Origin: Propionibacteriaceae bacterium
GTDB lineage: Bacteria; Actinomycetota; Actinomycetes; Propionibacteriales; Propionibacteriaceae
Length of the DNA: 64,000 bases
Reading direction: 5' to 3'
Assembly: GCA_003158895.1 (NCBI GenBank)
Contig: PMLO01000090.1
Coordinates: forward strand, 33,005 to 97,004
The translations under genes were made by a program, and so were the position numbers. This document shows, piece after piece, positions 2,311 through 38,315 of the stretch. A model generated the notes under the pieces. The model saw nothing but the letters and a program-made list of their open reading frames with translations. It searched no databases and was not told where the DNA came from. Every line of letters begins with the position of its first letter. The first letter of the stretch is position 1.

Positions 2311-3810
2311 TTAGCCGGCCAGCCAGACGGTCAACCCGTAGAAGACGCCGGCCGCCAGCAACCCGGTGACCGCCGGCAGGATCAGCAGCCGTGGATGGCG
2401 GAAGCCGCGGTCGACGCCAAGAATCGTCGCCGCGAACACCGAGCCGGAGGCCAGAGCCCAACCCCAGGCGGGTACGTTCTGCCAGGGCAGGAACGCCACC
2501 GCGAGGACCAGCCCCGCCTGAGCGGCGGATGCCACGACGACGCCGATGATCCGTGGCCTCAGCCGGGCCGCCATGAGAACGCACCACACGGCGAGGACGC
2601 ACGCGAAGGCTGCGATCCCCACCGGCCACGACGCGCTCAGACTGGTGACCGGCGCGCGAGGTTCGATCAACCGTGCGCCGAGTGGGTCGACCGAGGCACC
2701 GCTGTTGCCGAGCACCGCCACGGCGCGCTTGCGTGCCATGTCGATCCGCAGCACGGACGAGAACCCCGGTACCGACCCGTTGTGCCAGACCGAGACACCG
2801 GCCGCCGTGGTCGTGATCACCCAGCCGAGACCGATCGAGTCCGTCGGCGAGATGTCGTACCGCGGGGTCAACGCCCACGAGCCGATCTCTCGGCCGCTGA
2901 GAATCCACCGACCGAACGACGCGAGGTCGTCGAGCGTGGAGAACGTCGCCGTCCCCGCCGGGTAGTAGCTCGGACCCACCGAGTACGGAGCCCTCGCCCC
3001 GTTCGGCAGGCTCCCGACTGCCGCGTCGTCGGGGACGTCGTCGACGCTGGGAACGAACACGGTGTGCGTCATCCCCGACGGCTTCAGCACGCGCTCCGTG
3101 ACGAGCCCGGTCCAGGACGGAGCCCCAGCTGCCTTCGCCAGGGCGTACCCCAGCAGCGCGAACCCCAGGTTGGAGTACGCGTACGTGCCCTGCTGCGAGA
3201 TCGCCAGCCCCGCGGTCTGGGTGATGACGTCGTCCTGGGTGATGGCTTCGACGACGGCGTCACCGGATCCCTCGTACCCCTGACTCGCCGCCTGGTCGGC
3301 ATACGCGGGCAGGCCGGAACGATGGGTGGCCAGCTCCTCGAGCGTCACACCGCCTGCCGGGGTGCCGGTGAGCTGCGGCAGGTACGTGTCCAGTGTGTCC
3401 TGCAGCCCGACCTCGCCTCGGTCCACCGCGTCGGCGAGCATCAGTCCGGTGAACAGCTTGGTGATCGAGCCGATCTCGAACATCGTGGTGTCCGTGGGCG
3501 CCAGGCCGTCGCCGCGGTTGCCCAGGCCGGCCCACCGGCTCTGACCGTTCGACACCGTGATGACCGCGAGACCGTGAAAGCCCGCCGTGGAGCGGTTCGT
3601 GCCGTCAGCGCCGAGGATCGTTCGTACGCGATCCGCCAACCGTGTGTCGCCGTCGGTCTGGAACCCCAGGTGCAAGGGCTCCTGACCGACCAGCGTGGCC
3701 GCCAGGACGGCGACGAGGAGCGCGGCGGTGCTGGACATGAGCGCGCCTCCGTGAGGCGTGGTCAGCCAACGGAAGCCCGACTTCACCCCCTGCGCCGTAC
3801 CGGTGCCCAT
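2311..3810 (-). CDS. beta-lactamase-fold serine hydrolase with C-terminal multi-helix membrane domain
   Basis: SxxK (GSITK) and YxN (YSN) motifs, followed by several hydrophobic helices (WPVGIAAFACVLAVWCVLMAA, IIGVVVASAAQAGLVLAVAFL...). The true start may be the internal MSSTAALLVAVLAA near 3738. Confidence 0.8.
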   Translation of the reverse strand: MGTGTAQGVKSGFRWLTTPHGGALMSSTAALLVAVLAATLVGQEPLHLGFQTDGDTRLADRVRTILGADGTNRSTAGFHGLAVITVSNGQSRWAGLGNRGDGLAPTDTTMFEIGSITKLFTGLMLADAVDRGEVGLQDTLDTYLPQLTGTPAGGVTLEELATHRSGLPAYADQAASQGYEGSGDAVVEAITQDDVITQTAGLAISQQGTYAYSNLGFALLGYALAKAAGAPSWTGLVTERVLKPSGMTHTVFVPSVDDVPDDAAVGSLPNGARAPYSVGPSYYPAGTATFSTLDDLASFGRWILSGREIGSWALTPRYDISPTDSIGLGWVITTTAAGVSVWHNGSVPGFSSVLRIDMARKRAVAVLGNSGASVDPLGARLIEPRAPVTSLSASWPVGIAAFACVLAVWCVLMAARLRPRIIGVVVASAAQAGLVLAVAFLPWQNVPAWGWALASGSVFAATILGVDRGFRHPRLLILPAVTGLLAAGVFYGLTVWLAG

Positions 3811-3935
3811 GGCGGCTCCTTACGAGGAATGCCTCAGCCTATGTGCCCCTCACATCACGTCCAACAACACGCGATGCGGCGAGTTCACGCCGCGCACTAC
3901 CTCGAGGAATTCCTGGTCAACTCGGGGAACCTGAG

Positions 3936-4355
3936 TCAGGCGGCAGACTCCGCGCCTTCCGGTTCCGTCGCCTCGGGCTCGGGCTCAGGCGTCGCGATCA
4001 CACGGTTGACCCGACGGAACGCGGACGTGCCCCGATTGAGGTCGTGGCCGATCGTGGTCGCCTCGATGACGAGTCTCTCGTGCAGCACCCCGTTCGTGTC
4101 CGTCCATGATCGCGTGCGCAACCGCCCTTGCACGATGATCGGCTCACCCTTTCCAAGGCTCGAGGTCACGTTGTCCGCGAGACCCCGGAAGCACTCCACG
4201 CCGATCCATGTCGTCGTCTGGTCGTGCCACTCCCCGTCCCGGTACACCCGAGGCGTGCTGGCCATCCGGAACGACGCGGTCGTCAGCCCCGTACGTGTCA
4301 CACGATGTTCCACCTCGCTGCCGACGTTGCCGGTCATGGTCACTGTCATCTCCAT
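3936..4355 (-). CDS. ssb: single-stranded DNA-binding protein
   Basis: OB-fold SSB pattern MTGNVGSEVEHRVTRTGLTTASFRMASTPR...TTTWIGVECFRGLADNV...GEPIIVQGRLRTRSW, with a Pro/Glu-rich acidic tail. Confidence 0.8.
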   Translation of the reverse strand: MEMTVTMTGNVGSEVEHRVTRTGLTTASFRMASTPRVYRDGEWHDQTTTWIGVECFRGLADNVTSSLGKGEPIIVQGRLRTRSWTDTNGVLHERLVIEATTIGHDLNRGTSAFRRVNRVIATPEPEPEATEPEGAESAA

Positions 4356-4486
4356 GGTGAATCCCTTCTTCTCGATTCACCCGTGACCATGTGCGCACGC
4401 CCGCAGCATTCGTCACCCGAACTCGCTGCTGTGGACAGCGACTCTGCCTGTGGACAACCGCGGGGCGAACAAGTCGCGCCAGCGGC

Positions 4487-6091
4487 TCACCGCAGTTGTT
4501 TCAGCGCCTCCCGCGCACGGTCCCGGCGGGCGAGCTCGCTGTCGACGGGGCCGATCACGTACGTGCTCGTCACCGTACCGATCGCCCGTGTCAGCTCACG
4601 GTCGGCGCGCGCCGCATGGCTCCGGGCTCCTACCTCCACACCGACACGGCTGAGCAGCGCCACGAGGATCCCGGCGCCGACCCCGCCCAACGCCAGCACG
4701 GTCGGCAGGCCGAGGTTGCCGACCTTCGGTACAGGGAGTGAGGGCAACGCGAAGTACGAGACCAGGAGAAAGTTCACGAGCAACCACCCGGCACCCACGA
4801 GCGTCGCCAGCAGCACCAACCACTGCAGCACCCGCAGAGGAGTCCACCACCCGTTGCCGCGATCGGTCGCGAGGTCGGTGGTCGCGATCGCGCGATCAAG
4901 ATGGTCGGGCAGCAGTGTCTCCTCGGACCGCGCCGCCGCGAGTACAGCGTCCTGCCATCCCCGCGGCAGACCCTCGGAGGTCTCCGTCGCCAGGGCTCGT
5001 ACGGCGCTGTCGACGCGCGCCTTCGCCACGCCCTGCGCCACGGGAACCGACGTCCGGTTCACGCGGCCCGGCTCGATCGCCTTGTTCTTCTTCGTCGAGA
5101 TCACATCGAGGTGCAGCGCACGCAGCGGGTCGGGCCGGAACCGTGCGAGCCAGGCCACGACCGGCCAGCCCGTCGCGATGCCGCCGCGGTGCCGCCACGA
5201 CTTCTTGACGGCCTCGACGACCACGGGAACGCCGGCCGCGACCGCCAGCGTGTGGTTGAGATGCGCGGCACGCTTCTTGGGCACCCCGTCGGCATCAGCG
5301 TCCCCGAGCTGCGGCGCGAGCGCCTCGGCAGCGCTCGTCACGTCTCCCGCGAGCCGCTTGGCCGCAGTCTGCTTGCCCTTGATGAGCGTCACGAGTTCCG
5401 TACGGAGATCGGCCAGTCCGTCGCCCGTCACCGCAGACACCGTCACCAGCCGTGCGTCCGCAAGACCCTCGGCGTCGAGCAACCGCCGCAGGTCGGCGAT
5501 CATCCCCGCACGGTGCTCCTCGGCGACCCGATCGATCTGGTTCAGCGCGATCACCATGACGTCGGCGTGCGCGGCCAGCGGCCTCAGATAGCGGTCGTGG
5601 AGCGCCGCGTCCGCGTACTTCTGCGGGTCGACGACCCAGACGAACTGGTCGACGAGCTCGACGAGCCGGTCGACGATCTCCCGGTGCGACTGCTGCGTCG
5701 AGTCGTGGTCGGGCAGGTCGAGCAGGATCAGCCCGGACAGGTCCTCCGCGCCGGTGACGAGGTGCCGTCGCGGTACGTCGAGCCAGTCGAGGAGGTCGCT
5801 CTGCTCCTCACCGAACACGGCCGCCATCGCCGCCGCCGTGGTGGGTCGCCGCACACCCGGCTCGGCCAGCTTCGTACCGGACACCGCGTTGAACAGCGAC
5901 GACTTGCCCGACCCGGTCGCGCCGGCCAGCGCCACGATCGTCACGTCCCCCGAGAACGCGAGCCGGCCGTCGACACGGGTGAGAATCGCGTCGATGCGCT
6001 CCTCAACGTCCGGGTCGATGCGTCCCCTCGCGGCATCCATGGCCGTACGCAGCGCGGCCAGGCGGTCGGGCAGCGTCGAGCGTTTCTTCAC
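4487..6091 (-). CDS. dynamin-like GTPase with C-terminal TM helices
   Basis: P-loop GATGSGKSSLFNAV, LLDLPD motif, hydrophobic C-terminal helices; overlaps the upstream paralogue by 4 nt. Confidence 0.7.
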   Translation of the reverse strand: MKKRSTLPDRLAALRTAMDAARGRIDPDVEERIDAILTRVDGRLAFSGDVTIVALAGATGSGKSSLFNAVSGTKLAEPGVRRPTTAAAMAAVFGEEQSDLLDWLDVPRRHLVTGAEDLSGLILLDLPDHDSTQQSHREIVDRLVELVDQFVWVVDPQKYADAALHDRYLRPLAAHADVMVIALNQIDRVAEEHRAGMIADLRRLLDAEGLADARLVTVSAVTGDGLADLRTELVTLIKGKQTAAKRLAGDVTSAAEALAPQLGDADADGVPKKRAAHLNHTLAVAAGVPVVVEAVKKSWRHRGGIATGWPVVAWLARFRPDPLRALHLDVISTKKNKAIEPGRVNRTSVPVAQGVAKARVDSAVRALATETSEGLPRGWQDAVLAAARSEETLLPDHLDRAIATTDLATDRGNGWWTPLRVLQWLVLLATLVGAGWLLVNFLLVSYFALPSLPVPKVGNLGLPTVLALGGVGAGILVALLSRVGVEVGARSHAARADRELTRAIGTVTSTYVIGPVDSELARRDRAREALKQLR

Positions 6092-7914
6092 GGCAGCACC
6101 TCGCCGTCGACGACCTCTGCCGTCGGAGCGTCGACCTGCCGCAGGTCGACCTGCTCACGCAGTGAAGGATCGATCGCCGGCACCTCCCCCGCCCCGACCG
6201 CCGTCAGCCCGAGCTGGTGCATCTCGGCGGCGCGGCTGTCGTCGGCGCTGCGAGCGGCGGTACGGATCCGCTCCGCCTGCTCAGGATCGATGCCCACGGC
6301 ATCCAGCGCGGCATGGAACCGCGACAGCTCACCGGCCAGCAGGCCTTCGACCCTGGCGTCGAGGTCGTCCTTGGCCTTCTTGGCCAGCCGGCGTACGGCG
6401 TCGTCGCCGAACACAGCCTCAAGGACACGCTGTGCGAGCACCGCCGTACCGCCCGCCACGCCCACTTCCGCTCCGACAAGCCCACCCGTATGCGCGAACG
6501 CCACGAGCATGAGCGCCACGCCGACCCCGTTGACGCCGAAGGCCGCGATCCGCGCCTTCGTACGACGCCCTGACCCCTCGTCGCTCACGAGCTCCATGAC
6601 GTCGCCCTGCCAGGCCCTGATCGCCCGGGCGGCCCGCGACGGATAGTCCTCGGACACGCGCCGCAGGTCAGCACCGGCGCGGTCGAGCAGCATGCGGCCG
6701 GCGGGGTTCGCCCGCCAGGCCGCCTCCGCACGTTCGGCTGCCTTCTCGCCCTCTTCGCGCAGCAGCGCCTCGAGCCCGGACTCGACGGCAACAGCCACGT
6801 CGCCCGCGCCCTTCGGCTCGCCCTTGATCGCGGCCCAGATCCGGTCGCGCAACCAGCCGATCTTCTGCTCCATGGCCCGGAAGAACTCCCCTGTACCGAC
6901 GAAGTCGTGCCAGCGCGCCAGCACCTCGCCACGCAGCAGCGTGCCGTCGGCCGACTGGACGTTGACCGTCCGTACAGCCTCCTGGTACGACGCGGTCGCG
7001 TCCGAGCGCAGCTGTTCGACCGCCTCGAGCTGGTCGTCGACCGCCTGAGCGACGTCCGGCGCCTGCCGGGTGAGGGACCCGATAGCTCCGTCGAGCGTCT
7101 GCATGACCACGCGAGCGCGGGTGTTCTGGTCAGCCGCCAAAGCCGCCAGCCACCCGCGGATCGGAGCCACTGCCGCGTCCGGCAGCAGGCCGTCGGCGTC
7201 GGTCGTGGTCTCCGGTACGGCGAACAACGGCGACGACGCCAGCCCGCGCTCGGTCATCATCTGGCCCAGGTGAGGCGGCACCTCGGCCATCGCGGCCGGC
7301 GGCACGCGATCCACGACGACCGCCACCGCGGCGCTGCGATCGACGGCGCTCGCGAGGTAGTCCCACGGCACGGCGTCCGCGTACCGTGCGGCGCTCGTCA
7401 CGAACAGCCACAGGTCGGCGGCCGACAACAGCTGCGCGGCAAGCCGGCGGTTCTCGACGACGACCGAGTCGATGTCAGGCGCGTCCAGCACGGCCAACCC
7501 GCGCGGCAAGGTGGGTTCAGGCACCAAGTGCAGCGACCGTGTGTCATCGCTCGAAGAGCTCGAACGCAGCAACCCCGGCAGGATCCGCTCGTCCGCGAAC
7601 CAACGCGCATCGTCCGGGTTGTACACGAGGACCGGTGACCTCGTGGTGGGCCGGATCACACCGGGCTTCGTGACGACGCGACCGATCAGGGAGTTCACGA
7701 GCGTCGACTTGCCCGCCCCGGTCGATCCGCCGACGACGGCCAGAAGAGGAGCCTCGATGCGGGACAGCCTCGGCAGGACGTAGTCGTCGAGCTGCTTGGC
7801 GGAGTCCCGCGACACCCCGGTGAGCTCGGCGGCGCGGGGCAAAGGCAAGGGCAGCCTGACAGATGCCAGCGCGTCCCGCAGATCGGTCAACGCGCTGGTC
7901 AGCGGACTGGCCAT
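6088..7914 (-). CDS. dynamin-like GTPase
   Basis: P-loop GGSTGAGKSTLVNSL, VLDAPDIDS motif, long helical stalk-like C-terminus with a hydrophobic hairpin. Confidence 0.7.
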   Translation of the reverse strand: MASPLTSALTDLRDALASVRLPLPLPRAAELTGVSRDSAKQLDDYVLPRLSRIEAPLLAVVGGSTGAGKSTLVNSLIGRVVTKPGVIRPTTRSPVLVYNPDDARWFADERILPGLLRSSSSSDDTRSLHLVPEPTLPRGLAVLDAPDIDSVVVENRRLAAQLLSAADLWLFVTSAARYADAVPWDYLASAVDRSAAVAVVVDRVPPAAMAEVPPHLGQMMTERGLASSPLFAVPETTTDADGLLPDAAVAPIRGWLAALAADQNTRARVVMQTLDGAIGSLTRQAPDVAQAVDDQLEAVEQLRSDATASYQEAVRTVNVQSADGTLLRGEVLARWHDFVGTGEFFRAMEQKIGWLRDRIWAAIKGEPKGAGDVAVAVESGLEALLREEGEKAAERAEAAWRANPAGRMLLDRAGADLRRVSEDYPSRAARAIRAWQGDVMELVSDEGSGRRTKARIAAFGVNGVGVALMLVAFAHTGGLVGAEVGVAGGTAVLAQRVLEAVFGDDAVRRLAKKAKDDLDARVEGLLAGELSRFHAALDAVGIDPEQAERIRTAARSADDSRAAEMHQLGLTAVGAGEVPAIDPSLREQVDLRQVDAPTAEVVDGEVLP

Positions 7915-7921
7915 GGCCCTC

Positions 7922-9355
7922 CTAGGCCTTCGGTGGCCCCCACCGCGGGTCCACGACCGAGATGGTCGGAGCCGATCCTAGTGGCGCCGGAACCGGTGCG
8001 TGGGCAGGGAACTGACCCCCGATGCCGGCAGGTCCGGGGTAGGAGGGCGGCTGCCACGCCAGCGCGAACGCAGCCCGCGGCTTCTTCCAGTACGGCTTCA
8101 GCCCTCGCGCATCATCGAGTGCGCCTGCCGCGTGAAAATCGCGAATCGCGTACAGCAGCTCGCGTTCGCGCCACAGGCCTGCCGCGTCGACGGTGCCACG
8201 TGTGATCTGGTCACGCAGGTAGGCGAGTTCGGAGACGGCTCGCTGCAGCCTGTACGTGGCGACGACGTTGCCCCACCACGGCGAGAGCGCCAGCATCCGC
8301 GCCCGCTGGAGCGTCTTGGAGAACAGGTATGGGTATGTGTCGGGCACCCAGCCGGCCATCACGTAGTCCGACAGCCGGTTCCGGATCACGCGCCCCTCAC
8401 GGACGACCTGGAACACGGCGTACAGCGCGACGGCCCCCAGCACCGGAAGGGCGATCATGAAGTAGATCGTCTTCTGGTAGCTGTCAGGGAACAGGCTGGC
8501 AACGGTGTTGAACGTCATGTGCAGCAGTGCGGCGGTGAGGTAGCCGGCGACCGGCGCCAGCACCCTGACGACCTTGGCCCGGCTCCGCAGCCCGATCGCA
8601 AGGCCCACCGCCGTCATCGACGTGAACAGGGGATGCCCGAAGCTGGTCCACAGACCACGCATCTGTACGAGCTGGGCGACAGCAGCAGCCACGTCGCCCG
8701 TACTGGCGTTCATGCTCCCGTACACGATCGCCCTGGCGTAGTAAACGATGTTCTCGCTGAACGCGAAGCCGATGGCAGACAGCCCGGCCAGGCTCACAAG
8801 GCTGAGCTTGCTCGTGAGGCGGCGGCGATCGAGGAACGCGACGAGGAACACGACGGTCGCCTTGAAGAACTCCTCGACGAACGGCGCGACGTAGATCGCG
8901 GCTCGCGCGCCGGCCAGCTGGTTGCCGTTCTGGTCGATCGCTAGATGTTCAGAGGCCCAGGAGTTCACGACGATCGCGCCGTACGCGGCGATCGAGGATC
9001 CCCAGAACAGCGCCAAGGCCCAGAGCAGCCAGCGCTGCGGCTTCCACCGGTCGACGGCGAGGAACAACAGCGACCAGACCGCGAGCGTCGGGAACGCGTA
9101 GTTCGCCGACTGCCACAGGGCGTCGGAGTTGAGGCCGGGTACGGTCCCGGAGTCCGTCTTGACGTCGGCGGTGAGGATGACGTTCAACCTCACTAACGAG
9201 AAGATCCCCAGCAGGACGACCACGACGCTCGCCCACAACCACCGACTATGCGTGAACCTCTCCACGCCTGTGAGCTTCGGGTCTGCCACGTCGACGGCCG
9301 CCAGTCTCCGGTACCGGCCGATCCCAGGCAGGTCGGTACGGAGTGCGTCAGCCAT
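7922..9355 (-). CDS. prsW: PrsW-family intramembrane metalloprotease
   Basis: Polytopic membrane protein with APFVEEFFKA and LLHMTFN motifs. Start taken at MADALRT (9355), although the ORF is open to 9445. Confidence 0.7.
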   Translation of the reverse strand: MADALRTDLPGIGRYRRLAAVDVADPKLTGVERFTHSRWLWASVVVVLLGIFSLVRLNVILTADVKTDSGTVPGLNSDALWQSANYAFPTLAVWSLLFLAVDRWKPQRWLLWALALFWGSSIAAYGAIVVNSWASEHLAIDQNGNQLAGARAAIYVAPFVEEFFKATVVFLVAFLDRRRLTSKLSLVSLAGLSAIGFAFSENIVYYARAIVYGSMNASTGDVAAAVAQLVQMRGLWTSFGHPLFTSMTAVGLAIGLRSRAKVVRVLAPVAGYLTAALLHMTFNTVASLFPDSYQKTIYFMIALPVLGAVALYAVFQVVREGRVIRNRLSDYVMAGWVPDTYPYLFSKTLQRARMLALSPWWGNVVATYRLQRAVSELAYLRDQITRGTVDAAGLWRERELLYAIRDFHAAGALDDARGLKPYWKKPRAAFALAWQPPSYPGPAGIGGQFPAHAPVPAPLGSAPTISVVDPRWGPPKA

Positions 9356-9519
9356 GCGGACAAGGGTAGCGGCGGCACGGTACGAGCGAGGCTGTGCCCA
9401 CATGGGGCCGCGGGGTGGCGCGCAGGTCCTCGTTTTCATACCCATCGGCGCAATACCGCCCGAATCCGGACCCGGGCCGACGATCAGGTATCAGAACCAG
9501 AATCCTGCCATGCCAACTC

Positions 9520-9948
9520 CTAGGCCGTCATCGTCACCGGCGTGCCCCGCTGGACGGTGTTGGAGACGGTGCAGAGACGGTCGTGCGATAGCCGTACAGC
9601 CTCGGGCAGCAGCGCGCGCGCCTTGTCGGCGCCGTCGCCCTCACCGAACGCGAGGTCGAAGGCAACCGTGAGGTCTGTCACGAACGACGCACCCGCCTCG
9701 TTCCTCTCACGCTCGCCGGTGACGGTCGCGACGAACGATGTCGGCTCGGCGCGGCGGGTGACGAGGGTGTCGACGTCGATCGAGGAGCAGCCCGCGATGG
9801 CCGCGAGGAGCAGCTCGACGGGCGCGAAGCCACCGTCCTCCCCGGTCGAGAACCTGATCTCGCCGCCGCGACGGTTGCGGGCCACGTACGTGCCCGCGGC
9901 GGTCCTCTCGACGGTCACGTGGTAACGAGGCTCGGCCTGCTCGGTCAT
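9520..9948 (-). CDS. OsmC-family peroxiredoxin-like protein
   Basis: About 140 aa with the two conserved Cys contexts (IAGCSSID, RLCTVSN); start at MTEQAEP (9948). Confidence 0.8.
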   Translation of the reverse strand: MTEQAEPRYHVTVERTAAGTYVARNRRGGEIRFSTGEDGGFAPVELLLAAIAGCSSIDVDTLVTRRAEPTSFVATVTGERERNEAGASFVTDLTVAFDLAFGEGDGADKARALLPEAVRLSHDRLCTVSNTVQRGTPVTMTA

Positions 9949-10110
9949 GGTTCTCCTTCGCGTCGGGTTCCCCCACAACCTAGTAGTCGTGCTGATCTTG
10001 AAGGTTCAACGGCCTCCGCCTCTAGTAAAGGTGAGGAATTGGCAGCAAAGTGACGTATCACAGACGTGATCTGGGCCTCCTCAGAGTCGTAGTCCTATGA
10101 AAGGACGTCG

Positions 10111-11607
10111 ATGATCAACCCCGCCGCCCGACCCGACAAGCTGCCGAGCCTCGACATCAGAGCACTCGACCCGGCATCCGCGCCACGAGGCAGCGGCTAC
10201 CAGCAGACCGCCTATGTCGCGGACAGCCTCATCGTGTTCGCGCACGACCCCGGCACCGTACAAGCCGCGATCGCCAGGATGGTGGAGCCCGGCGTCTTCG
10301 CTCGTGTCACCTCGATCCTCCCGGCGGACCTCAAGCCGCTCGGCGAGACGGCGGTCAAGGGGCTGCTGAAGGTGACGATCTCGTACGAGTCCGAGTCGGT
10401 CCGCAGCGTCGACCTCGTGGCGCTGATGGCTCAGCTTCAGAGAGAGTTCGGCACGAACGCGGTCGGCCTCGACCACGTCGTCACGACCGCCCCGTACCTC
10501 GCAGGCGTCCCCTACCTCGCGGGTGTCCCCTATTTGGCCGGCGTCCCGTACCTCGCGGGTGTCCCCTATCTCGCCGGTGTCTCGGCGATGCAGGAGTACG
10601 GGATGCCGGGCTTCGGCGGCCGCGCGCCGGTGGCACTGCTCCTCGACGACCCCGCGCGCCACACGCCGATGCCCTCGCGCAGACCGGTCGTCGCGATGCT
10701 CGACACCGGCCTCGGCGCGCACCCCTGGTTCGCCGATGCAGCGCTGGCGACGGACAAGGTCACGTACGGTTCGTACCTGCTCGGCATGTACGGGAACGTG
10801 CCCGGTGCGGAGTGGCACCAGGCTCCAGTCGACCCCCTCGACGGCTCCCTCCCGAGCGACGCGGGGCACGGAACGTTCATCTGCGGCATCATTCGTCAGG
10901 TCTGCCCCTCGGCACGGCTGCTCGCCATCCCGGTCATGGCAGAGGACGGCGTCGTCGCCGAGAGCGGGCTCATGGCGACTCTCCTGGTGCTGCTGCACCG
11001 CCACATCGACGGCGTGGTCCACGGCAACCCCGACCTGGTCATCGACGTGCTCAACCTGTCGCTCGGCTACTACCACGAGAACGCGGACGACATCGCGTTC
11101 GACGGACCGTTCGCGTCACTCCTGGCCGACTTCGGTGCGTGGGGCGTTGCGGTCGTGGCGTCCGCCGGCAACAGCGGTACGACGCGTCCCATGTATCCGG
11201 CTGCCTTCGCCGCCGCGCCCGACGAGCCGGGACGTGTCCCGCAGGTCACCGTCGGCGCGCTCAACGCCGATGGAACCTCGGTCGCGTACTTCTCCAACGC
11301 CGGCGCCTGGGTCACCGCGCACCGGATCGGCGCCTCGTTGGTGAGCACGGTCCCGACCACGCTGTCCGGCGACGCCCAGCCGGCCGCCGGCCTCATGTAC
11401 CAGGGCCTGCACCGCACGACCCCTGATCCCGACGCGTACGCCTCCGGCTTCGCGACCTGGTCAGGGACGTCGTTCGCCGGACCGGTGCTCGCGGGCGAGA
11501 TCGCCAGGGCGCTGGTGAGCGACCCGGACCTGACGACGATCGATCGAGGTGCGTGCGTCGCCCGTGGCCGTCGGGCGATCACAACCGTGCATGGGAGAGC
11601 CACATGA
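10111..11607 (+). CDS. S8 (subtilisin-family) serine peptidase, apparently cytoplasmic
   Basis: Asp/His/Ser triad contexts VAMLDTGLG, GHGTFICG, SGTSFAGP. No signal peptide or TM segment at the N-terminus. Stop TGA 11605-11607 overlaps the next start. Confidence 0.85.
   Translation: MINPAARPDKLPSLDIRALDPASAPRGSGYQQTAYVADSLIVFAHDPGTVQAAIARMVEPGVFARVTSILPADLKPLGETAVKGLLKVTISYESESVRSVDLVALMAQLQREFGTNAVGLDHVVTTAPYLAGVPYLAGVPYLAGVPYLAGVPYLAGVSAMQEYGMPGFGGRAPVALLLDDPARHTPMPSRRPVVAMLDTGLGAHPWFADAALATDKVTYGSYLLGMYGNVPGAEWHQAPVDPLDGSLPSDAGHGTFICGIIRQVCPSARLLAIPVMAEDGVVAESGLMATLLVLLHRHIDGVVHGNPDLVIDVLNLSLGYYHENADDIAFDGPFASLLADFGAWGVAVVASAGNSGTTRPMYPAAFAAAPDEPGRVPQVTVGALNADGTSVAYFSNAGAWVTAHRIGASLVSTVPTTLSGDAQPAAGLMYQGLHRTTPDPDAYASGFATWSGTSFAGPVLAGEIARALVSDPDLTTIDRGACVARGRRAITTVHGRAT
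10492..10581 (+). repeat. in-frame 18-bp x5 tandem repeat encoding (PYLAGV)5 in the S8 pro-region
   Basis: The units are ccgtacctcgcaggcgtc / ccctacctcgcgggtgtc / ccctatttggccggcgtc / ccgtacctcgcgggtgtc / ccctatctcgccggtgtc. The peptide is identical in all five and every difference is synonymous. Confidence 0.95.
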
Positions 11608-12191
11608 CCATGCCCGATGTCGAGGCCTCGCTGACCACGCGGGCGGCTGTCGCATTCGCCGAGTACCGGGACGGCGACCTCCAGGCCCTGCACCGGCTGG
11701 TCACCGCGGTGACTCCGGTGCTGTGGCACGTGGCACGCTCGTGCGGGCTGTCGCCGCAGAATGCCGAGGACACCGTACAGACCACCTGGCTCCGACTCGT
11801 CGAGCACGCGAGCGGCATCGACGCGCCACAGGCCGTCCTGGGCTGGCTGTGTACGACGACGAAGCGCGAGGCCTGGCGGGTACAGCGCATCGCCCGCACG
11901 GTCGATCCTGTCGACACGACTGAGCTCGAGCCCGACGACCCGACCCCGCACGATCCCGCACACGTGGCGGCGATGAACGACGAGGCCCGTCGCCTCTGGG
12001 AACACTTCGTGACCCTGTCACCCAAGTGCCAGCAGATCCTGCGCGTCGTGTGCATGGGTGGCGCACCCGACTACGCCGGCCTCGCCGAGGCGATGGGCGT
12101 CCCGATGGGTTCGATCGGCCCCACCCGCGGCAGATGCCTCGCCACCCTCCGCCGCGCCCTACTCGACGATCCAAACTGGAGCCTGACATGA
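11604..12191 (+). CDS. ECF-type sigma-70 family RNA polymerase sigma factor
   Basis: Region 2 (AEDTVQTTWLRLVEH...REAWR) and region 4 HTH (PDYAGLAEAMGVPMGSIGPTRGRCLATLR). The ATG at 11604 forms ATGA with the S8 stop. Confidence 0.85.
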   Translation: MTMPDVEASLTTRAAVAFAEYRDGDLQALHRLVTAVTPVLWHVARSCGLSPQNAEDTVQTTWLRLVEHASGIDAPQAVLGWLCTTTKREAWRVQRIARTVDPVDTTELEPDDPTPHDPAHVAAMNDEARRLWEHFVTLSPKCQQILRVVCMGGAPDYAGLAEAMGVPMGSIGPTRGRCLATLRRALLDDPNWSLT

Positions 12192-12212
12192 CCGCAGCAT
12201 CCCGACGATCCC

Positions 12213-12657
12213 ATGGACGACATCGACCTCGCCATCCTCGGACGCACTGCACCAGACACTCGCTCTGGCCGATCCCGTACCGCCCTGGCTGATCGGCGAC
12301 ATCGAGTTCAGCCTCTCGCTGGCCTCGATGAACGCCGAGCTCGCGCTGCTCGCCGACGAGCCGGTGGGGGTACGCGCTCCGACCGCCGAGAGCGCCGACT
12401 CGGTGACGTTCACGAGCAGCACGATGACGCTCATGGTCGTCATCGGACGCGACGACGGCCAGCTGCGGATCGACGCCTGGGTGTCCGGCGGAGGCATCAC
12501 CGTCGAACTCATCCAGGGCGCCGACCGCACCCCTGCCATCAGCGACGTGAACGGACGCGTGAGCTGGTTCCCCGTACAGCCCGGACTCGCCCGCTTCCTC
12601 ATCGCGCCGATCACCTCCGGCGGCCGGCCGGTCATCACCCCCGCGATCGAGTTGTAG
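12213..12657 (+). CDS. small beta-rich hypothetical protein (candidate sigma partner); reading frame changes near 12240
   Basis: Strong GC3 coding signal in frame 1 from 12241 to TAG 12655-12657 (DALHQTLALADPVPPWLIGDIEF...VITPAIEL). The only canonical in-frame start is ATG 12328. ATG 12213 (MDDIDLAIL) is in frame 0 and would join if one nt at about 12240 were removed. Confidence 0.5.
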
Positions 12658-12776
12658 GGCGTTGGCGAGGAGCGCTCAGCCCACGACGTCCCGGCCCTCC
12701 CGGGCGGCTGGCGCGCGCGACCGAGCTCTACGAACAGGCGCGGGGCGACATCGCCGCGTACGCCATCGAAGCGGCC

Positions 12777-15230
12777 ATGTCTCTGCTGGACGAAGCGACC
12801 GAGGAGCTCGCCGACGACCGGTCCGTGGGTGCGTCGGAGCTTCGGCTCCGCATCGCCATGTCCCGAACCTGGCGCTCGTTCGCGAGCGACCCGGAGGGTA
12901 CGCAGCGGGAGCTGGACCGCGTCGCGTCCGAGGCCAAGGGACTGGGGCTCGACCACATCGTGCCGCTGGCGATGCTGCAGCAGGGCACCCTGTGGACCCG
13001 GCTGGGCGAGAACGCGCGGGCGCTGGAGGTCCTGGAACGGATCGCGCCGTACGAACAGCTCCTGGGCGTCGACGACCGCGTACGGCTCCTCATCAACCGG
13101 GGGACGACGGCGTCGCTGCTGCTGAAGATCGAGGAGGCCTCGGCGGACCTCGGCGAGGCGGCCGCCCTGGCTCACCAGGCGGGGCTCGACAGGTTCGCGT
13201 ACATGGCGCTGCACAACCGCGGCTTCGTCGAGTTCCTGCGCGGCGACCTGCCCGCGGCGCTGCGGCTCATGGACGAGGCGGACCGGCTCGGGGCGCCCGT
13301 CGACCGTGGCATCGCCAACCTCGACCGGGGACGGGTGCTGATCGAGGCCGGCCTCGTCACGGACGCGTGGGAGACGCTGCAGACTGCCGCTTCGAGCCTG
13401 GCCGAGGCGGGACTCGAGACCGAGGCCGACGAGGTGGAGCTGGATCTGGCACGCTGCGAGGTGCTGCTGGCCAGGGGCGACGATGCCGTCGTGCGGCTGA
13501 CGCCGCTCATCAGCCGGTTCTCCGCACGTGCCGCACGGTTCCGCGAGATCGAGGCCCGGGTGCTGCGGTGCGAGGCGATGGCGTTCAGCGCGGAGGAAGA
13601 CCCGCGTCCGGGCGACGCCGAAGCCCTGGCGCGCGACGCGGCCGACGTCGACCCACGGCTCGCGGACGTGGCGGGGACCCTGTACGTGGAGAGCCTGGTC
13701 CGTACAGGTCGGGCTGCGGACGCGTCCGTACGAGCGGTGCAGTCGCTCGCTCGGTCGACCCAGCTCGCACGACGCTGCCTGGCCCGGCGGGTCGCGGTGG
13801 ACCTCGCTCTGGCACGGGGAGACGAGGCAGGCGCTCGGCGCACGCTTCGGGCGGTGGTCGACGACCTCCGTACAGCCCGTCGCGGTGTCTCGAGCCTCGA
13901 TCTCAAGACCGGCATGGCCCTCCACGCGTCGCCGCTCGCGGTCACGGACGTGGCTCTGGCGGCACGGTCGGGGTCCGGTGCACGGGTGCTGGCGGTGACG
14001 GAGAGGTGGCGTACGGCGACGGGGTCGATGCCTCAGGTACGGCCCAGCGACGACCCTCCCGAGCAGGCCTTGTGGACGATGCTGCGCAAGCTGCGCGCCG
14101 ACCAGCGCGACGCCGAGCCGGGAGCGGATCTCGCCGAGAACCGACGAGCGATCAGCCGTACGGTCAGGTCGCTGCGCGAGACATCCTGGGCCCGGGACCT
14201 GGGCGAGGGTGCCGACGACATCGCCGCGTCGACCGCCGAGATCCGCCTGGCGCTGTCCGAGCGGCACACCGCGATGACCAGCATGGCGATCACGGGTGAG
14301 ACGCTCGTCGCGGTCGTGTCGCGTGGCGGACGGTACGAGCTGGTCACGGTGGCGGGTGCGCGGGAGATCCTCGAGCTGGCGCGGCAGGCGTCCGCCGATC
14401 TCGATGCTCTCGCACGGGTGGCTTCGTCGGTTCAGGGTTCTGCGTTGCGCGCGGGCATCACGGGTTCGCTGACAGGAACGCTCGAGACGCTGGACCGCGC
14501 GTTGTCACGGGCGCTCCCTGCCGGTCGCGATCCGCTCCTGCTCGTACCGCCCGCACAGCTCGCCGCACTCCCTTGGGCGATGCTGCCGTCGCTGCGTGGC
14601 CGAAGCCTGACCGTGTCGCTCTCGGCGACGCACTGGGTGCGGCACGACGTGCGGGTTTCTGACCCGGTGGTACGGGCGGTGGCCGGGCCGGACCTCCGCG
14701 TGGCGAGCGCGGAGCAGGAGGCCGTCGCGGCGATATGGCGGCAACCGGGAGGCTCGTGGTCGACCGGCCATGACTTCCGCGACGCCTTGGTGGCGGCTGA
14801 CGTGGTGCACGTCGCCGCGCACGGCCAGCACGAGTCCGACAACCCCTTGTTCAGCTCGTTGCTGCTCGCCGACGGGCCCACGTTCGTCCACGAGGTCGAA
14901 GGGCTGCGGCTCAGGGCGCGCCACGTCGTGCTGTCGGCCTGCCGCGCGGGGAGGGTGAACGTACGGGCGGGCGACGAGCCTCTCGGCCTCACTGCCTGCC
15001 TCCTCGCCTTCGGCGTATCGACCGTCGTCGCCCCGGTGAGCGTCGTCGGCGACGACCTGGCGCTCGCGACCATGACCGCGTACCACGAGGGGCTGGCGTC
15101 CGGCCTGGACGCACCGACGGCCCTTGCGGCGGCCACGACGGACGCCCCACTGCTCGCGGCCTCGTTCACGTGCTTCGGGGCGGGCTGGCGGACAACACCG
15201 GCGGTCTCGCGAACAGACGAACGTACCTAA
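12777..15230 (+). CDS. TPR-repeat protein with C-terminal CHAT (caspase-like) protease domain
   Basis: Helical TPR-like repeats, then a CHAT dyad: VVHVAAHGQHES (His) and VVLSACRAGR (Cys). ATG 12777 is the first canonical start. Coding-like sequence extends upstream to CTG 12708, and the frame is formally open from 12213. Confidence 0.8.
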   Translation: MSLLDEATEELADDRSVGASELRLRIAMSRTWRSFASDPEGTQRELDRVASEAKGLGLDHIVPLAMLQQGTLWTRLGENARALEVLERIAPYEQLLGVDDRVRLLINRGTTASLLLKIEEASADLGEAAALAHQAGLDRFAYMALHNRGFVEFLRGDLPAALRLMDEADRLGAPVDRGIANLDRGRVLIEAGLVTDAWETLQTAASSLAEAGLETEADEVELDLARCEVLLARGDDAVVRLTPLISRFSARAARFREIEARVLRCEAMAFSAEEDPRPGDAEALARDAADVDPRLADVAGTLYVESLVRTGRAADASVRAVQSLARSTQLARRCLARRVAVDLALARGDEAGARRTLRAVVDDLRTARRGVSSLDLKTGMALHASPLAVTDVALAARSGSGARVLAVTERWRTATGSMPQVRPSDDPPEQALWTMLRKLRADQRDAEPGADLAENRRAISRTVRSLRETSWARDLGEGADDIAASTAEIRLALSERHTAMTSMAITGETLVAVVSRGGRYELVTVAGAREILELARQASADLDALARVASSVQGSALRAGITGSLTGTLETLDRALSRALPAGRDPLLLVPPAQLAALPWAMLPSLRGRSLTVSLSATHWVRHDVRVSDPVVRAVAGPDLRVASAEQEAVAAIWRQPGGSWSTGHDFRDALVAADVVHVAAHGQHESDNPLFSSLLLADGPTFVHEVEGLRLRARHVVLSACRAGRVNVRAGDEPLGLTACLLAFGVSTVVAPVSVVGDDLALATMTAYHEGLASGLDAPTALAAATTDAPLLAASFTCFGAGWRTTPAVSRTDERT

Positions 15231-15375
15231 CGAGCCATCCGGACTCGTTGCAGCCATCACCCACGCGGCGATGACCACCTAGGTCAGCCGATAGGTACGT
15301 CCGTGTGTCACGCGTCGCGTTGGGGGTCCATAACTACGCCACCGGGCCCTGCGGAACACTGCGAGAACTCCGCGC

Positions 15376-15405
15376 GCCCGCTGCCTGAGGTGGCCCGAAG
15401 CGGGC
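15376..15405. terminator. possible bidirectional hairpin between convergent genes
   Basis: GCCCGCT ... AGCGGGC 7-bp stem with a 16-nt loop between the CHAT gene (+) and the oxidoreductase gene (-); no U-tract. Confidence 0.25.
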
Positions 15406-15419
15406 TGCCCTGATGGTCC

Positions 15420-16067
15420 TCACATGTCCCGGTAGCGCTTCGCCTGCGCGAGCGCGACACGGAGGGTCTCGGAGGTGTGACGGGTCACGTAACCAGGTGT
15501 GTCGCGCTGGATTCGCCAGCCCTCAGACAGCGGAGACACCTCAACGGCGTCGAAGCCGAAGGAGTCGATGAGCGCGGCGACGCTCGCCCGGGCCTCCGGA
15601 TCGTCACCGACGACGGCCAGCGCTCGACGCCCCGGTGTACCGGCAGCCTGGCCCTCGGTGGTGAGAGCGGCAGCCTGGATGTGGTTGAACGCCTTGACCA
15701 CCTTCGAGGTCGGCAGGTGCCGCTGCAGCAGCTCCGAGACCGTCGTGGACTCGTCGTCCAGCTCGGCGATCTGCCCGTCGCGCTGCGGATAGTAGTTGTT
15801 CGTGTCGATGACGAGCTTTCCCGCCAGCTCCTCCACCGGGACGGTCTTGATGCCCTGCAACGGGATCGTCACGACCGCGAAGTCGGCGGCGGCAGCCGCC
15901 TCGGACGGTGTCGCGGCTCGGGCATGCGGGCCGAGCTCGGCGACGAGATCCGCCAGGGTCTCCGGGCCGCGGGAGTTGCTCATCACCACGTCGTGCCCGT
16001 GAGCCACCGCGAGGCGAGCCAGTTGCGAGCCGATGTGTCCGGAGCCGATGAAGCCAATTGTCGTCAT
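15420..16067 (-). CDS. NADPH-dependent F420 reductase-like / NADP oxidoreductase family protein
   Basis: Only the last 216 aa of ORF 15420..16742 look real: MTTIGFIGSGHIGSQLARLA Rossmann motif, then VVKAFNHI. Confidence 0.7.
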   Translation of the reverse strand: MTTIGFIGSGHIGSQLARLAVAHGHDVVMSNSRGPETLADLVAELGPHARAATPSEAAAAADFAVVTIPLQGIKTVPVEELAGKLVIDTNNYYPQRDGQIAELDDESTTVSELLQRHLPTSKVVKAFNHIQAAALTTEGQAAGTPGRRALAVVGDDPEARASVAALIDSFGFDAVEVSPLSEGWRIQRDTPGYVTRHTSETLRVALAQAKRYRDM

Positions 16068-18804: not shown

Positions 18805-18886
18805 CTCCCTGCGTATGGGTTGGTCAGACCCCGTACCGCTCGGCTAAGATGGCGCTCGCCCTTTCGGGGGCATCGCGGTGTGGCGT

Positions 18887-35808: not shown

Positions 35809-37566
35809 GTGAAGCTCACGAGACTGTTCAGGCGAGGTGCCACGGCTGTTGCTGTGCTGCTCGCCTTCCTGATGTCTGCGCCGGCGGCGCAGGCGTACCT
35901 GGGGCCGCAGACCGCGACCACACCAGGATTCGTCGGCATTAATGGAAAACACGAAATCGGCACAATGGGTCTCTCGTTCTACAACAATGCACGGTTCGTG
36001 TGCATCGATGAGTCCGGCGGGACCGCAGGGTTCATGGACACGCCTCATAGCGCGACCGCGGCAAGCGATGTGCAGAACTGGGCAGCCGCGTACGCGCTCA
36101 GCGACCGCGCGGGATACCTCTACTCCCCCGCGGACAAGAAGGCCGCAGCGCTCGACTACTACGTCGGTGTGATCCAGAACATGAACTCGAATCCTTCCGA
36201 GGTTGCGCGCGCCTGGAACGCCGCCGCAGCTGCCGGAATGTGGGCCGATTCCACGGCCGAGCTCGCGGCGCTCGTCGCTGACGTCAACGCTAACGCGGGA
36301 CCTTACGACATGAGCAGGATCGCGCTCTCAAAGTCTGGCACTGGTGGAGGGACGGTGACCGACATTGGAGTTCAGTCGGCGGCCGGGACCTGGCAGGCAG
36401 GGTATGCGGTCACGCTGAGCTTGACGGGGCCTGGAGTCTTTGCGGCGACTGGCACGAACGCGATGACTGTCACCTCGGCGACGAGCCCGCTGACGGAAGC
36501 GTTCACGTTCACCGGACCTGGCACCGTCAAGGTCAGGCAGGCGACCACCGGACTTCCCGAGATGGTCGCGGTGCACCCCGCACCGGGCGCCGGGCAGCAG
36601 CGGGTTGTAGCCGAAGGCGCACTCGGTATCGCCAGCGGTACCGATCCTGTGGATGTGACGGCGTATGCGCCGAAGGCCACGTCGACGGTAAGCAGCCAGC
36701 TTGTGGCGGCCGGGTCGCAGGTCACCGATACGGTCCTGCTCACTGGTGGCGTGCCGAATGGTGCGTTCTCCGGGACGGTCGATGTGTACGGGCCGCTCGC
36801 GACGCATCCGAAGGACGGCATTCCCGCTGGGACCGTTCCGGCGACGACGCTCACCTACCCCGGGACGTTCGCCGCGGACGGCACCGGGAAGGTCATCACC
36901 TCGCCCGTGACGCTGCCGAAGCCCGGGTTCGTCTACTTCCACGAGAAGGTCGATGCGACAGCGGACTACGCCGCTTACACCGCGCCGCTGGGCAAGGAGC
37001 TCAGTGAAACGGTGCTGGTCATGGCTCCCGAGCTCGTCACCCAGGCCAGTGCACAGACTGTCTCGCCAGGCTCGACGCTGACCGACACGGTGGCGTCTAC
37101 CGGCAGCAGCTGGCCGGTCGTTGACGTCAACGGGGATCCCATCTCGTACACGGTCTCTGGGGTCATCCTGGCGTCGTCGTCGTGCTCGGGGCCGTGGGAC
37201 CCGAGTGCCCCAGTGTTCTCGTTCGGGCCGGTGGCGTTCACGCCCGGACAGCCCCTCACCACGGGAAGCTGGACCGTCCCAGCATCAGTGGCCGGTCAGT
37301 GCGTCACGTATTCCGAGGTGACGAGCTGGTCGGCGAAGTCGGGCACGGGCCACACGGCGCCGACCACACCGGGTCTGGCGACCGAATCGGCGCAGATCAC
37401 CGACAAGGGCGGTGCGGGTGGTGCGGGTGCGTACATCTCGACCGGTGCTCCCACTATGACCACGGTGCCTGCACCTGGTGTGTGGGCGGGCAGCGCTGCG
37501 GTCATGTTGGGCGCTCTGCTCGGTCTGGGTCTGCTGGTCACGCGTAAGAAGGGTGCCCGCGCATGA
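35809..37566 (+). CDS. secreted surface protein (putative sortase substrate / mating adhesin)
   Basis: Signal peptide ...LMSAPAAQA; Ig-like Thr/Gly-rich body; C-terminus AYISTGAP...GSAAVMLGALLGLGLLVTRKKGARA (hydrophobic helix plus basic tail). Confidence 0.7.
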   Translation: MKLTRLFRRGATAVAVLLAFLMSAPAAQAYLGPQTATTPGFVGINGKHEIGTMGLSFYNNARFVCIDESGGTAGFMDTPHSATAASDVQNWAAAYALSDRAGYLYSPADKKAAALDYYVGVIQNMNSNPSEVARAWNAAAAAGMWADSTAELAALVADVNANAGPYDMSRIALSKSGTGGGTVTDIGVQSAAGTWQAGYAVTLSLTGPGVFAATGTNAMTVTSATSPLTEAFTFTGPGTVKVRQATTGLPEMVAVHPAPGAGQQRVVAEGALGIASGTDPVDVTAYAPKATSTVSSQLVAAGSQVTDTVLLTGGVPNGAFSGTVDVYGPLATHPKDGIPAGTVPATTLTYPGTFAADGTGKVITSPVTLPKPGFVYFHEKVDATADYAAYTAPLGKELSETVLVMAPELVTQASAQTVSPGSTLTDTVASTGSSWPVVDVNGDPISYTVSGVILASSSCSGPWDPSAPVFSFGPVAFTPGQPLTTGSWTVPASVAGQCVTYSEVTSWSAKSGTGHTAPTTPGLATESAQITDKGGAGGAGAYISTGAPTMTTVPAPGVWAGSAAVMLGALLGLGLLVTRKKGARA

Positions 37567-38315
37567 CCAGTCCGCGGCGATCGAACGGCCTGGCCCCATC
37601 AGGTCGTCACGGCGTCCCAATGCGCGCGGTCGCCGCAAGCAGCGGCCTGGCACGGACCCGTGTGGTCCGTGCCGGGTTCGCTGCCCTCGTCCTCACCCTC
37701 GTTCTCGGCGGCGGGTTGATGAGCCTGACGGCAGGGACCACGAGCAGTGCGGCCGCGGCACCCATGCCTACCGCGACGGTCTCGACCGGTCTCGCGCCGG
37801 AAGCGGCCGGTCCGACAGCCCTACCCGTTGCCTCGGGGTCCGCGTCGCCGCAGGTCATCACCACCGACACGATGGCGCCGGGGACGGTCCTGATCCCTTC
37901 GGCGGGCATCTACATCAGTTACGCACTGGAGCCGGTCATTAACGGCGAAGCGACAGTCCCGGACTGCACAGCCGGCATCTGGGACAAGGGCGCCACGCCC
38001 ACGGACAAGGCCGGCACGGTCCTGCTGTGGGGCCACGTCGACACGAGCCACTGCCGCACCGGCGCGTTCGCCGGCCTCGCCTCGACCGTCCCGAACGGTG
38101 CGATCTATCTCAAGGACGCCGATGGCCACGTGACGAGCTGGCAGGTGACCCAGATGTATACCGAGCCGCGGAGCTCGAAGCACGCCGAGCTGTTCACCAC
38201 TGCGGGTCCGCACCGGCTCGCGGTCGTGACCTGCGGTGGTGCACCGACCACTGATGGCTATTACACGCACAACGTCATCGTCATTGCACAGGAAACTGCG
38301 TCCCAACAGGCGTAG
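37563..38315 (+). CDS. sortase (class E/F-like)
   Basis: ATGA overlap with the adhesin stop; LLWGHVDT (His) and RLAVVTCGG (Cys) motifs; N-terminal TM helix. Confidence 0.75.
   Translation: MTSPRRSNGLAPSGRHGVPMRAVAASSGLARTRVVRAGFAALVLTLVLGGGLMSLTAGTTSSAAAAPMPTATVSTGLAPEAAGPTALPVASGSASPQVITTDTMAPGTVLIPSAGIYISYALEPVINGEATVPDCTAGIWDKGATPTDKAGTVLLWGHVDTSHCRTGAFAGLASTVPNGAIYLKDADGHVTSWQVTQMYTEPRSSKHAELFTTAGPHRLAVVTCGGAPTTDGYYTHNVIVIAQETASQQA

Follow-up and report, generated by a model that had tools for sequence, protein, structure and literature searches.

The stretch of DNA described here, called the window, is 64,000 nucleotides of contig PMLO01000090.1 from a Propionibacteriaceae bacterium (assembly GCA_003158895.1). 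Its G+C content is about 69%, and its closest named relatives are Propionibacteriales / Propionibacteriaceae metagenome-assembled genomes (MAGs). At 10055-15230 the window holds a promoter-like motif followed by four closely packed genes, all on the + strand, according to the listing of open reading frames (ORFs) and direct reading. These encode an S8 peptidase, a sigma factor of the extracytoplasmic function (ECF) type, a small protein, and a protease that combines tetratricopeptide repeat (TPR)-like helices with a CHAT domain. The four genes are a real cassette and not a chance neighbourhood.

Some of the features below were placed by comparison with the metagenome contig L001 and the fen MAG L018.

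10055..10082, +: bipartite promoter-like motif GTATCA-N16-CTCCTC, 29 nt 5' of the S8 start
10111..11607, +: S8 peptidase (apparent pro-subtilisin), 498 aa; Pfam PF00082 Peptidase_S8, E 7e-14
10491..10581, +: 18-bp tandem repeat in five copies, encoding (P)YLAGV x5; TRF and a second repeat search
11604..12191, +: ECF-type sigma factor, 195 aa; Pfam Sigma70_r2 1e-8, NCBIfam TIGR02937
12188..12657, +: small partner gene, 155 aa in intact relatives; alignment to L001
12662..15230, +: TPR-CHAT protease, 855 aa in L001, TTG start; Pfam CHAT PF12770, E 1.4e-21
12770..13208, +: apparent mosaic patch of 439 bp in the TPR region of the CHAT gene; comparison with L001 and L018

The first-pass annotation of this DNA had described four co-directional genes in a tight operon with two ATGA junctions. 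Both overlaps are there: the S8 stop and the sigma start share the ATGA at 11604-11607, and the sigma stop and the start of the small gene share the one at 12188-12191. All four genes of that description stand. What it overlooked is that the window copy contains three frameshifts, which are described below.

A hydropathy scan found no transmembrane-like segment in any of the four proteins. The sole hydrophobic peak (Kyte-Doolittle value, KD, of 2.04) lies about 20 residues past the catalytic Cys of the CHAT protein. It is conserved, being also present in the L003 orthologue, and we take it for a buried strand in the core of the CHAT domain.

Four conserved proteins

The S8 protein scores 52.2 bits against the Peptidase_S8 model, where the cut-off is 21.8. 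Its catalytic residues are Asp198 (10702-10704), His253 (10867-10869), Asn354 and Ser454 (11470-11472). The Asp, His and Ser contexts are therefore intact, as had been claimed, and there is indeed neither a transmembrane segment nor a signal-like stretch. The earlier description, correct on the triad and the domain, did not mention an N-terminal prodomain or the YLAGVP repeat in five copies.

The prodomain spans roughly aa 16-125 and is followed by a disordered repeat linker (aa 128-168), and then by the catalytic domain. An AlphaFold2 (AF2) model with a pLDDT of 81 and a pTM of 0.86 has an N-domain of beta-alpha-beta-beta-alpha-beta topology and a subtilisin core, with 128-168 disordered. The best Foldseek matches of this model are the unautoprocessed pro-subtilisins 3afg, 2e1p and 3whi, which align over 460-520 columns and across both domains. 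Going by the model, the S8 protein looks like an unprocessed, cytoplasmic pro-subtilisin zymogen.

The number of YLAGVP copies varies among near-identical strains. There are five in the window and six in L001, L013 and L018, so that the window gene is one 18-bp unit shorter than that of L001. Each orthologue has a repeat of its own, such as YLAGVP, MPYYAP, GFWGGHGG, GGHWGGV, SMTTGHP, GVPYMGGGS, GSPFVQGHG, GTPFM and others. In 148 S8 homologues, out of a family with more than 1500 matches, the linker has a median length of 44 aa (range 24-73 aa) and consists of 25% Gly, 12% Pro and 7% Tyr. The repeats of these homologues share a core that follows the pattern [GVAST]-P-[YF]-x, and directly after the linker stands a nearly invariant GxGGRxPV.

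In Cellulomonas the S8 gene is absent. Instead there is a divergently transcribed gene for a trypsin/Nal1-like protease with around 35 PFTE repeats, which lies behind a GTATCT variant of the promoter-like motif. The S8 homologue P0153 has VPFTEGHG repeats. That an unrelated protease bears a similar repeat core suggests that another component of the cassette recognises the repeats. A peptide-binding TPR array would be the obvious candidate reader.

The sigma factor was said to have regions 2 and 4 only, and this agrees with the match to TIGR02937 (sigma70-ECF), which covers 2-165 of the 165 model positions at 45.8 bits, against a cut-off of 42.9. A sequence search of the PDB returned no match below 1e-3 for this protein.

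The sigma stop overlaps the start of the small gene in 63 of 70 loci, and this 4-nt overlap suggests translational coupling. The two genes are adjacent wherever both are detected, while the S8 gene changes position. Such invariant adjacency is usual for pairs of sigma and anti-sigma factors.

The small protein was modelled by AF2 with a pLDDT of 92. Helices at 11-27 and 34-56 are followed by a flexible linker at 57-70 and by a beta sandwich of seven strands. An alignment of 85 sequences shows no variation at Arg62 of the linker, and an Arg lies within the linker in 63 of 70 cassette loci. The C-terminus, TP[AVS][IV][ED][LIVF], is also conserved. In a library clustered at 50% identity, at least 1107 clusters belong to the family at E<=1e-3.

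Nothing in Pfam, NCBIfam or PADLOC matches the small protein above cut-off. In four of five orthologues there is a CarboxypepD_reg match of around 1e-4, which is below cut-off. A profile search of the PDB gave no specific sequence match, and Foldseek gave no match below 1e-3 for the model, only generic beta-sandwich matches. The small protein is a candidate anti-sigma factor or protease substrate, and may define a new class of anti-sigma or inhibitor.

The last protein scores 77.6 bits against the CHAT model, for a cut-off of 24. The His and Cys reported for it are found at 14820-14822 (VHVAAHG) and 14940-14942 (VVLSAC). Its closest solved structures by sequence are the TPR-CHATs of Craspase, 7zoq and 8d9f, with E values of 2e-5 to 1e-4 over the catalytic core only. 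Against the Csx29 model (NF041237, CAS_csx29_CRASP) it reaches just 11.9 bits, where the cut-off is 300 (E 0.072). No anti-sigma Pfam domain is present in the protein, and its N-terminus leads straight into the TPR-like helices. The protein P0001 is 96% identical to the window CHAT and has an intact N-terminus, MARSAQPTTSRPSRALARATELYEQ.

Degenerate active sites would have spoken against the first-pass annotation. They are not what is seen among relatives: 56 of 59 related genes have the motifs of the S8 triad, and 77 of 80 relatives those of the CHAT dyad.

Distribution, upstream motif and associated genes

With a 5-sequence CHAT alignment as query, and one genome per species, a scan found 309 relatives, so that the number of species-level genomes with a related CHAT protein is at least 309. 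The best 79 of the 309 loci were then scanned with custom hidden Markov models (HMMs).

All four genes are present in 64 of these 79 loci, in two gene orders. The order S8-sigma-small-CHAT is found in 52 loci and sigma-small-S8-CHAT in 9. Three variant loci beyond these also retain all four genes; one of them has an extra S8-CHAT pair and another an additional trypsin-like gene. Incomplete loci are mostly at contig ends. Co-occurrence across Actinobacteria had been proposed as a check on the four-gene grouping, and the outcome is strongly positive.

The cassette ranges over at least four order-level groups: Propionibacteriales, Micrococcales, Jatrophihabitans/Frankiales and Pseudonocardiales. 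Looking up CHAT and S8 homologues individually leads to the same four genes in Arachnia, Pedococcus, Janibacter, Xylanimonas, Jatrophihabitans, a Pseudonocardiaceae MAG and others. A more distant TPR-CHAT (30% identity), in L009, comes with no S8 and no clear cassette; upstream, sigma and the small protein have only weak matches, of 74 and 36 bits.

A recurrent location is between rplA (L1) and rplJ (L10), inside the conserved secE-nusG-rplKA-rplJL-rpoBC cluster. This holds for 19 of the 79 scan loci, and for 22 distinct loci if L005, L007 and L010 are included. Both gene orders occur there. The loci with this placement include L005, L007, L010, L046, L048, L053, L054, L057, L062, L063, L066, L068, L070, L072, L075, L079, L082, L083, L085, L086 and L090.

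Upstream of the cassette, GTATCA-N16-CTCCT has a single match in the 64-kb window, where 0.02 would be expected. The looser form GTATC(A)-N16-18-CTCY occurs in 57 of 68 cassette upstream regions, for an expectation of 0.009 per 350 bp. No sigma-70-type promoter is predicted in 9900-15600. The motif is a putative promoter of the cassette's own ECF sigma factor, and its frequency ahead of cassettes suggests autoregulation.

Nearly all further copies of the motif are of two kinds: divergent ones at 100-240 nt upstream of the cassette, and others a short way downstream of CHAT. Behind them lie extra genes that differ by lineage: APH-family kinase-like, HopA1-family, an AraC/DUF6597 regulator, a second S8, a trypsin-like protease and an unknown 730-aa protein.

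The APH-like gene is found behind a divergent copy in L004 (2188-2937, - strand), L048, L057, L063, L079 and L085, and the HopA1-like gene in L054, L068 and L075. L037 has HopA1-like, APH-like and trypsin-like genes together (2339-5110, - strand). In all, APH or HopA1 genes were detected in about 10 of about 80 distinct loci, and they are absent from the window. Pairing an APH-like with a HopA1-like protein resembles the dehydration enzymes of class V lanthipeptides. The APH-like protein of L048 itself contains VPMEL four times.

A divergent AraC/DUF6597 gene is present in L044, L052, L055, L056, L059, L071 and L077. The second S8, of around 700 aa and with a fervidolysin-type prodomain, occurs in L025, L029, L030, L039 and L043, and the 730-aa protein of no known identity lies behind the motif in L027 and L032. 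These lineage-specific genes suggest a variable sigma regulon, which would include more proteases and a transcription regulator.

The trypsin-like protease of L037 (4022-5110, - strand), from Candidatus Phosphoribacter hodrii, carries Cys-containing repeats near its C-terminus, VICNKITQPAVCEPIQTR, in about three copies. Its gene adjoins a cassette in which the S8 gene falls into two HMM matches.

Jatrophihabitans-type loci also hold a conserved hairpin-rich stretch, in which no ORF reaches 70 aa. The rplA terminator is on one side of it and the divergent promoter copy on the other; its position is 4440-4628 (- strand) in L010, with equivalent stretches in L046, L053, L062 and L072. RNAalifold support for the structured stretch is weak. 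Rfam has no match in the related Lapillicoccus-type loci; the Jatrophihabitans-type loci were not submitted. The stretch may encode a small RNA that depends on the sigma factor, or else an antisense transcript.

The window copy and its surroundings

L001 equals the window over 18.5 kb bar a few differences, nearly all of which are inside the cassette. Three are 1-nt insertions in the window within a span of 511 bp, at 12195 and 12239 in the small gene and at 12706 in the CHAT gene. They break both frames near their 5' ends. A fourth 1-nt insertion, at 18873, is the only difference outside the cassette.

The intact frames are those of L001. Its 155-aa small protein starts from the ATG within the ATGA overlap, and its 855-aa CHAT protein from a TTG 4 nt past the small-gene stop. 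What remains of the small gene in the window is an ORF of only 109 aa at 12328-12657. The first-pass annotation placed a small protein at 12.2-12.66 kb; a gene is there, at 12188-12657, but two insertions break its frame. In the CHAT gene, the insertion at 12706 shifts the frame after codon 15.

The substitutions are even more concentrated. Of 78 over the 18.5 kb, 77 fall in 12770-13208, and the last is at 13507, also in the CHAT gene. This tract is 17% divergent from L001 and 99.8% identical to L018, of which the flanks around the tract are only some 83-86% identical to the window. Most of the substitutions are in third codon positions, without base bias. Hypermutation by a diversity-generating retroelement or otherwise, which was considered as the source of the variable tract, is ruled out by this third-position bias and by the 99.8% identity to L018. 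From these comparisons, the 439-bp tract would be either an inter-lineage recombination patch or the product of a chimeric assembly.

The window copy may be defective or misassembled, and its small and CHAT genes may not work. The frameshifts reflect either real inactivation or a local assembly error. On another MAG contig, of 128,639 bp, the small protein P0130 is internally frameshifted and the CHAT protein P0022 is shortened.

To the left of the cassette, 4487-10005 on the - strand holds two dynamin/GTPase-like genes, a PrsW-family membrane protease (7922-9445) and OsmC (9520-9978). In Bacillus, PrsW is the site-1 protease for an anti-sigma factor. Nevertheless the PrsW, dynamin-like and OsmC genes were ruled out as parts of the cassette, since they are conserved only in close relatives (L001). 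The closeness of PrsW looks like coincidence.

To the right, from about 25000 to 60000, is a region that resembles an integrative conjugative element. Housekeeping genes lie between it and the cassette. The region has a shifted GC skew and contains many + strand ORFs without a Pfam match. Its recognisable genes are:

37548-38315: sortase
48081-49985: TraG/VirD4 coupling protein
51345-53321: DnaG-like primase
54703-58383: TrwC relaxase-helicase, 1227 aa, the largest ORF of the window

Interpretation and relation to known systems

We tentatively read the cassette as a self-contained, autoregulated, cytoplasmic sigma switch run by two proteases, and give this reading a little less than an even chance. 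It rests on the synteny in 64 of 79 loci, the overlap of the sigma and small genes, the upstream motif, the conserved active sites, the zymogen model, and published precedents in which CHAT proteases control sigma factors.

In such a switch, the small protein would hold the sigma factor inactive by means of its two N-terminal helices. TPR-CHAT would be both sensor and initiator, with the TPR array docking the repeats of the S8 linker, the C-terminal tail of the small protein, or both. Upon a cytoplasmic signal, CHAT would cut the S8 zymogen in or beside the repeat linker, for example at GGR|xPV. CHAT, S8 or the two together would cut the small protein too, possibly at the conserved linker Arg. 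The freed sigma factor would then transcribe from GTATCA-N16-CTCCT and so amplify the cassette in a positive feedback. In some lineages it would also drive the APH-like kinase, the HopA1-like protein, the AraC-like regulator or further proteases. As output, abortive infection is conceivable, and so is a programme for stress or development.

Several things weigh against this. A -10-like CTCCT is unusual for ECF promoters. A class I anti-sigma domain (ASD / zf-HC2) is not recognisable in the small protein by Pfam, NCBIfam, PDB or Foldseek searches, and the usual domain has four helices where the small protein has two. The S8 repeats could be a mere slippage-prone linker. That CHAT acts before S8 is a guess. 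Finally, a related CHAT stands alone in five loci, and L058 has S8-CHAT without sigma and small genes, so the proteases can exist apart from the sigma pair. These five loci and L058 adjoin the same GTPase gene, and TypA/BipA is downstream in the three CHAT-alone loci that were read.

The solitary proteases would also fit an ordinary ECF sigma/anti-sigma pair for which both proteases are only the regulon, with the signal reaching the small protein in another way. S8 and TPR-CHAT would then be induced effectors, for proteostasis, turnover or killing, and not regulators of sigma. One sigma-type promoter precedes the whole set of four genes, which means that the proteases are certainly co-induced, and in some lineages the motif drives further proteases, either trypsin-like or a second S8 with its fervidolysin-like prodomain. 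Still, we find this explanation doubtful. The proteases are kept with the sigma pair across most loci, in two orders and with one non-homologous replacement, which exceeds typical regulon membership. In addition, published CHAT/sigma systems place the protease upstream of sigma (PMC10028731; bioRxiv 10.1101/2023.06.23.546230).

Anti-phage abortive infection is another option, in which TPR-CHAT senses a phage product and activates S8 as an executioner that degrades host proteins, while sigma only amplifies. There is a close parallel in SAVED-CHAT/PCaspase with its sigma factor, small inhibitor and kinase (bioRxiv 10.1101/2023.06.23.546230), and some cassette loci have optional kinase-like and HopA1-like partners. 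The differences between the window and L001 fall nearly all in the cassette, the insertion at 18873 excepted, and disrupted-looking copies recur in L061, L066, L091 and the contig with P0130 and P0022. We nevertheless consider it unlikely, as PADLOC gives no significant match (the best is a weak 'subtilase' at 7e-5), and at least 22 loci sit in the rplA-rplJ housekeeping site and not in a defence island.

Peptide maturation is a very improbable explanation. Proteolysis would release the S8 repeats as precursor units, which the APH-like kinase and the HopA1-like protein would modify in the loci that have them. Tandem repeats of a short conserved motif in the linker, and APH-like and HopA1-like genes behind the same promoter motif in some loci, are what such a system might look like. 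However, all proteins are cytoplasmic with no conserved exporter, many repeats such as YLAGVP and MPYYAP have no Ser, Thr or Cys, the modifying genes are confined to about 10 of about 80 loci and missing from the window, and the repeats are inside an enzyme and not in a small precursor.

The two-protease sigma switch has a more far-reaching version, which is possible although we rate it as rather doubtful. This is a widespread, CRISPR-independent, caspase-like cascade of Actinobacteria in which a TPR-CHAT initiator reads fast-evolving repeats on a serine-protease zymogen, either S8 or, interchangeably, trypsin-like. Once released, the zymogen would act together with an ECF sigma factor, which a small anti-sigma or inhibitor of a new type holds, and the whole would be a switch for innate immunity or programmed death. 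If true, it would be a cascade parallel to Craspase and SAVED-CHAT/PCaspase, with a sensor logic of its own.

CHAT-linked, protease-controlled sigma factors have so far been known only as add-ons to CRISPR or to cyclic oligonucleotide-based antiphage signalling systems (CBASS), or from one myxobacterial membrane anti-sigma factor. The cassette would present the same logic as a free-standing cytoplasmic module. Its testable features are the promoter motif, a linker with a conserved Arg that is predicted to be cleavage-prone, the C-terminal tail, and a repeat motif common to two unrelated proteases. It also gives a handle on how a TPR-CHAT chooses its substrate and is activated without a CRISPR complex.

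The first-pass annotation likened the gene set to the output arm of type III-E CRISPR systems, without any CRISPR-Cas. It was right that there are no cas genes or arrays: in the 64 kb, repeat searches found no CRISPR-like repeats, there is no ORF of Cas7-11 size, and the 20 largest ORFs besides TrwC have no Cas Pfam match. A PADLOC match of Cas11e to the sigma factor at 0.0046 is a chance match. A cas7-11/gRAMP locus just outside the window would have made this a type III-E accessory arm. This is ruled out by the 22 cassettes that reside in the ordinary rplA-rplJ chromosomal site.

The annotation also could not map the genes to a named system, and this holds up. No description of the cassette was found in PADLOC, NCBIfam, Pfam or the literature, where the ECF Hub group descriptions were outside the search. 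PADLOC-DB v2 matches no catalogued system, with a weak 'subtilase' for S8 (7.4e-5) and nothing for CHAT or the small protein. CHAT, subtilase and TPR are not mentioned in the main text of the ECF re-classification paper.

In Craspase, CASP-sigma is bound and inhibited by Csx30, the substrate of Csx29, and autoregulation of the locus is positive (PMC10028731). The likeness is that of a TPR-CHAT cysteine protease beside an ECF-type sigma factor and a partner protein, where cleavage of Csx30 switches on transcription (PMC10028731), and the solved structures closest in sequence to the cassette CHAT are from Craspase. As a functional analogy the earlier comparison is reasonable, and SAVED-CHAT/PCaspase provides a second analogue. 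As a family assignment it fails, given the very low score against the Csx29 model. The cassette lacks Cas7-11, CRISPR RNA and an array, and adds a pro-subtilisin. In size and architecture its partner protein (155 aa, a pair of helices and a beta sandwich) appears to differ from Csx30, of which the constructs run to residue 565 (PMC10028731). No Csx31 was identified, and the scan of 79 loci found no further conserved cassette gene.

SAVED-CHAT activates PCaspase, which then cleaves a sigma factor and a small inhibitor, with an abortive phenotype (bioRxiv 10.1101/2023.06.23.546230). That system, with PCc-sigma, PCi and PCk, derives from type III-B or CBASS. As in the cassette, a sigma factor and a small protein share one operon with two different proteases. 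A kinase is encoded there as well, and some cassette loci carry the APH kinase-like gene. On the other hand, the cassette has a TPR array and no SAVED domain to bind cyclic oligoadenylate (cOA), and in place of a caspase it has the zymogen of a serine protease, either S8 or trypsin-like, as its second protease. It also stands alone in Actinobacteria, and is known here from genes and models.

For DdvA-DdvS of Myxococcus xanthus, CHAT-mediated proteolysis leading to sigma release has been proposed, so there too a TPR-CHAT module is tied to control of an ECF sigma factor (PMC11506125). DdvA, however, unites a zinc anti-sigma domain, a transmembrane helix and a periplasmic TPR-CHAT in one membrane protein (PMC11506125). 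The TPR-CHAT of the cassette is separate and cytoplasmic, without a transmembrane segment, and the candidate anti-sigma factor is a separate small protein.

Pro-Tk-subtilisin (2e1p), ProN-Tk-SP (3afg) and pro-subtilisin E (3whi) share with the S8 protein a prodomain packed on the S8 domain and an intact triad. The cassette protein differs in being cytoplasmic without a signal peptide, in sharing its locus with the genes of a sigma factor and a caspase-like protease, and in its Gly/Pro/Tyr-rich repeat linker of 24-73 aa, which is not in the aligned pro-subtilisins.

Sigma switches controlled by CHAT proteases were thus already known. The new elements are the stand-alone status, a pro-subtilisin with motif repeats, a replaceable second protease, and the small partner. 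The best reading of these comparisons is that the cassette is a member of neither the Craspase nor the SAVED-CHAT/PCaspase/sigma systems, and would work like both.

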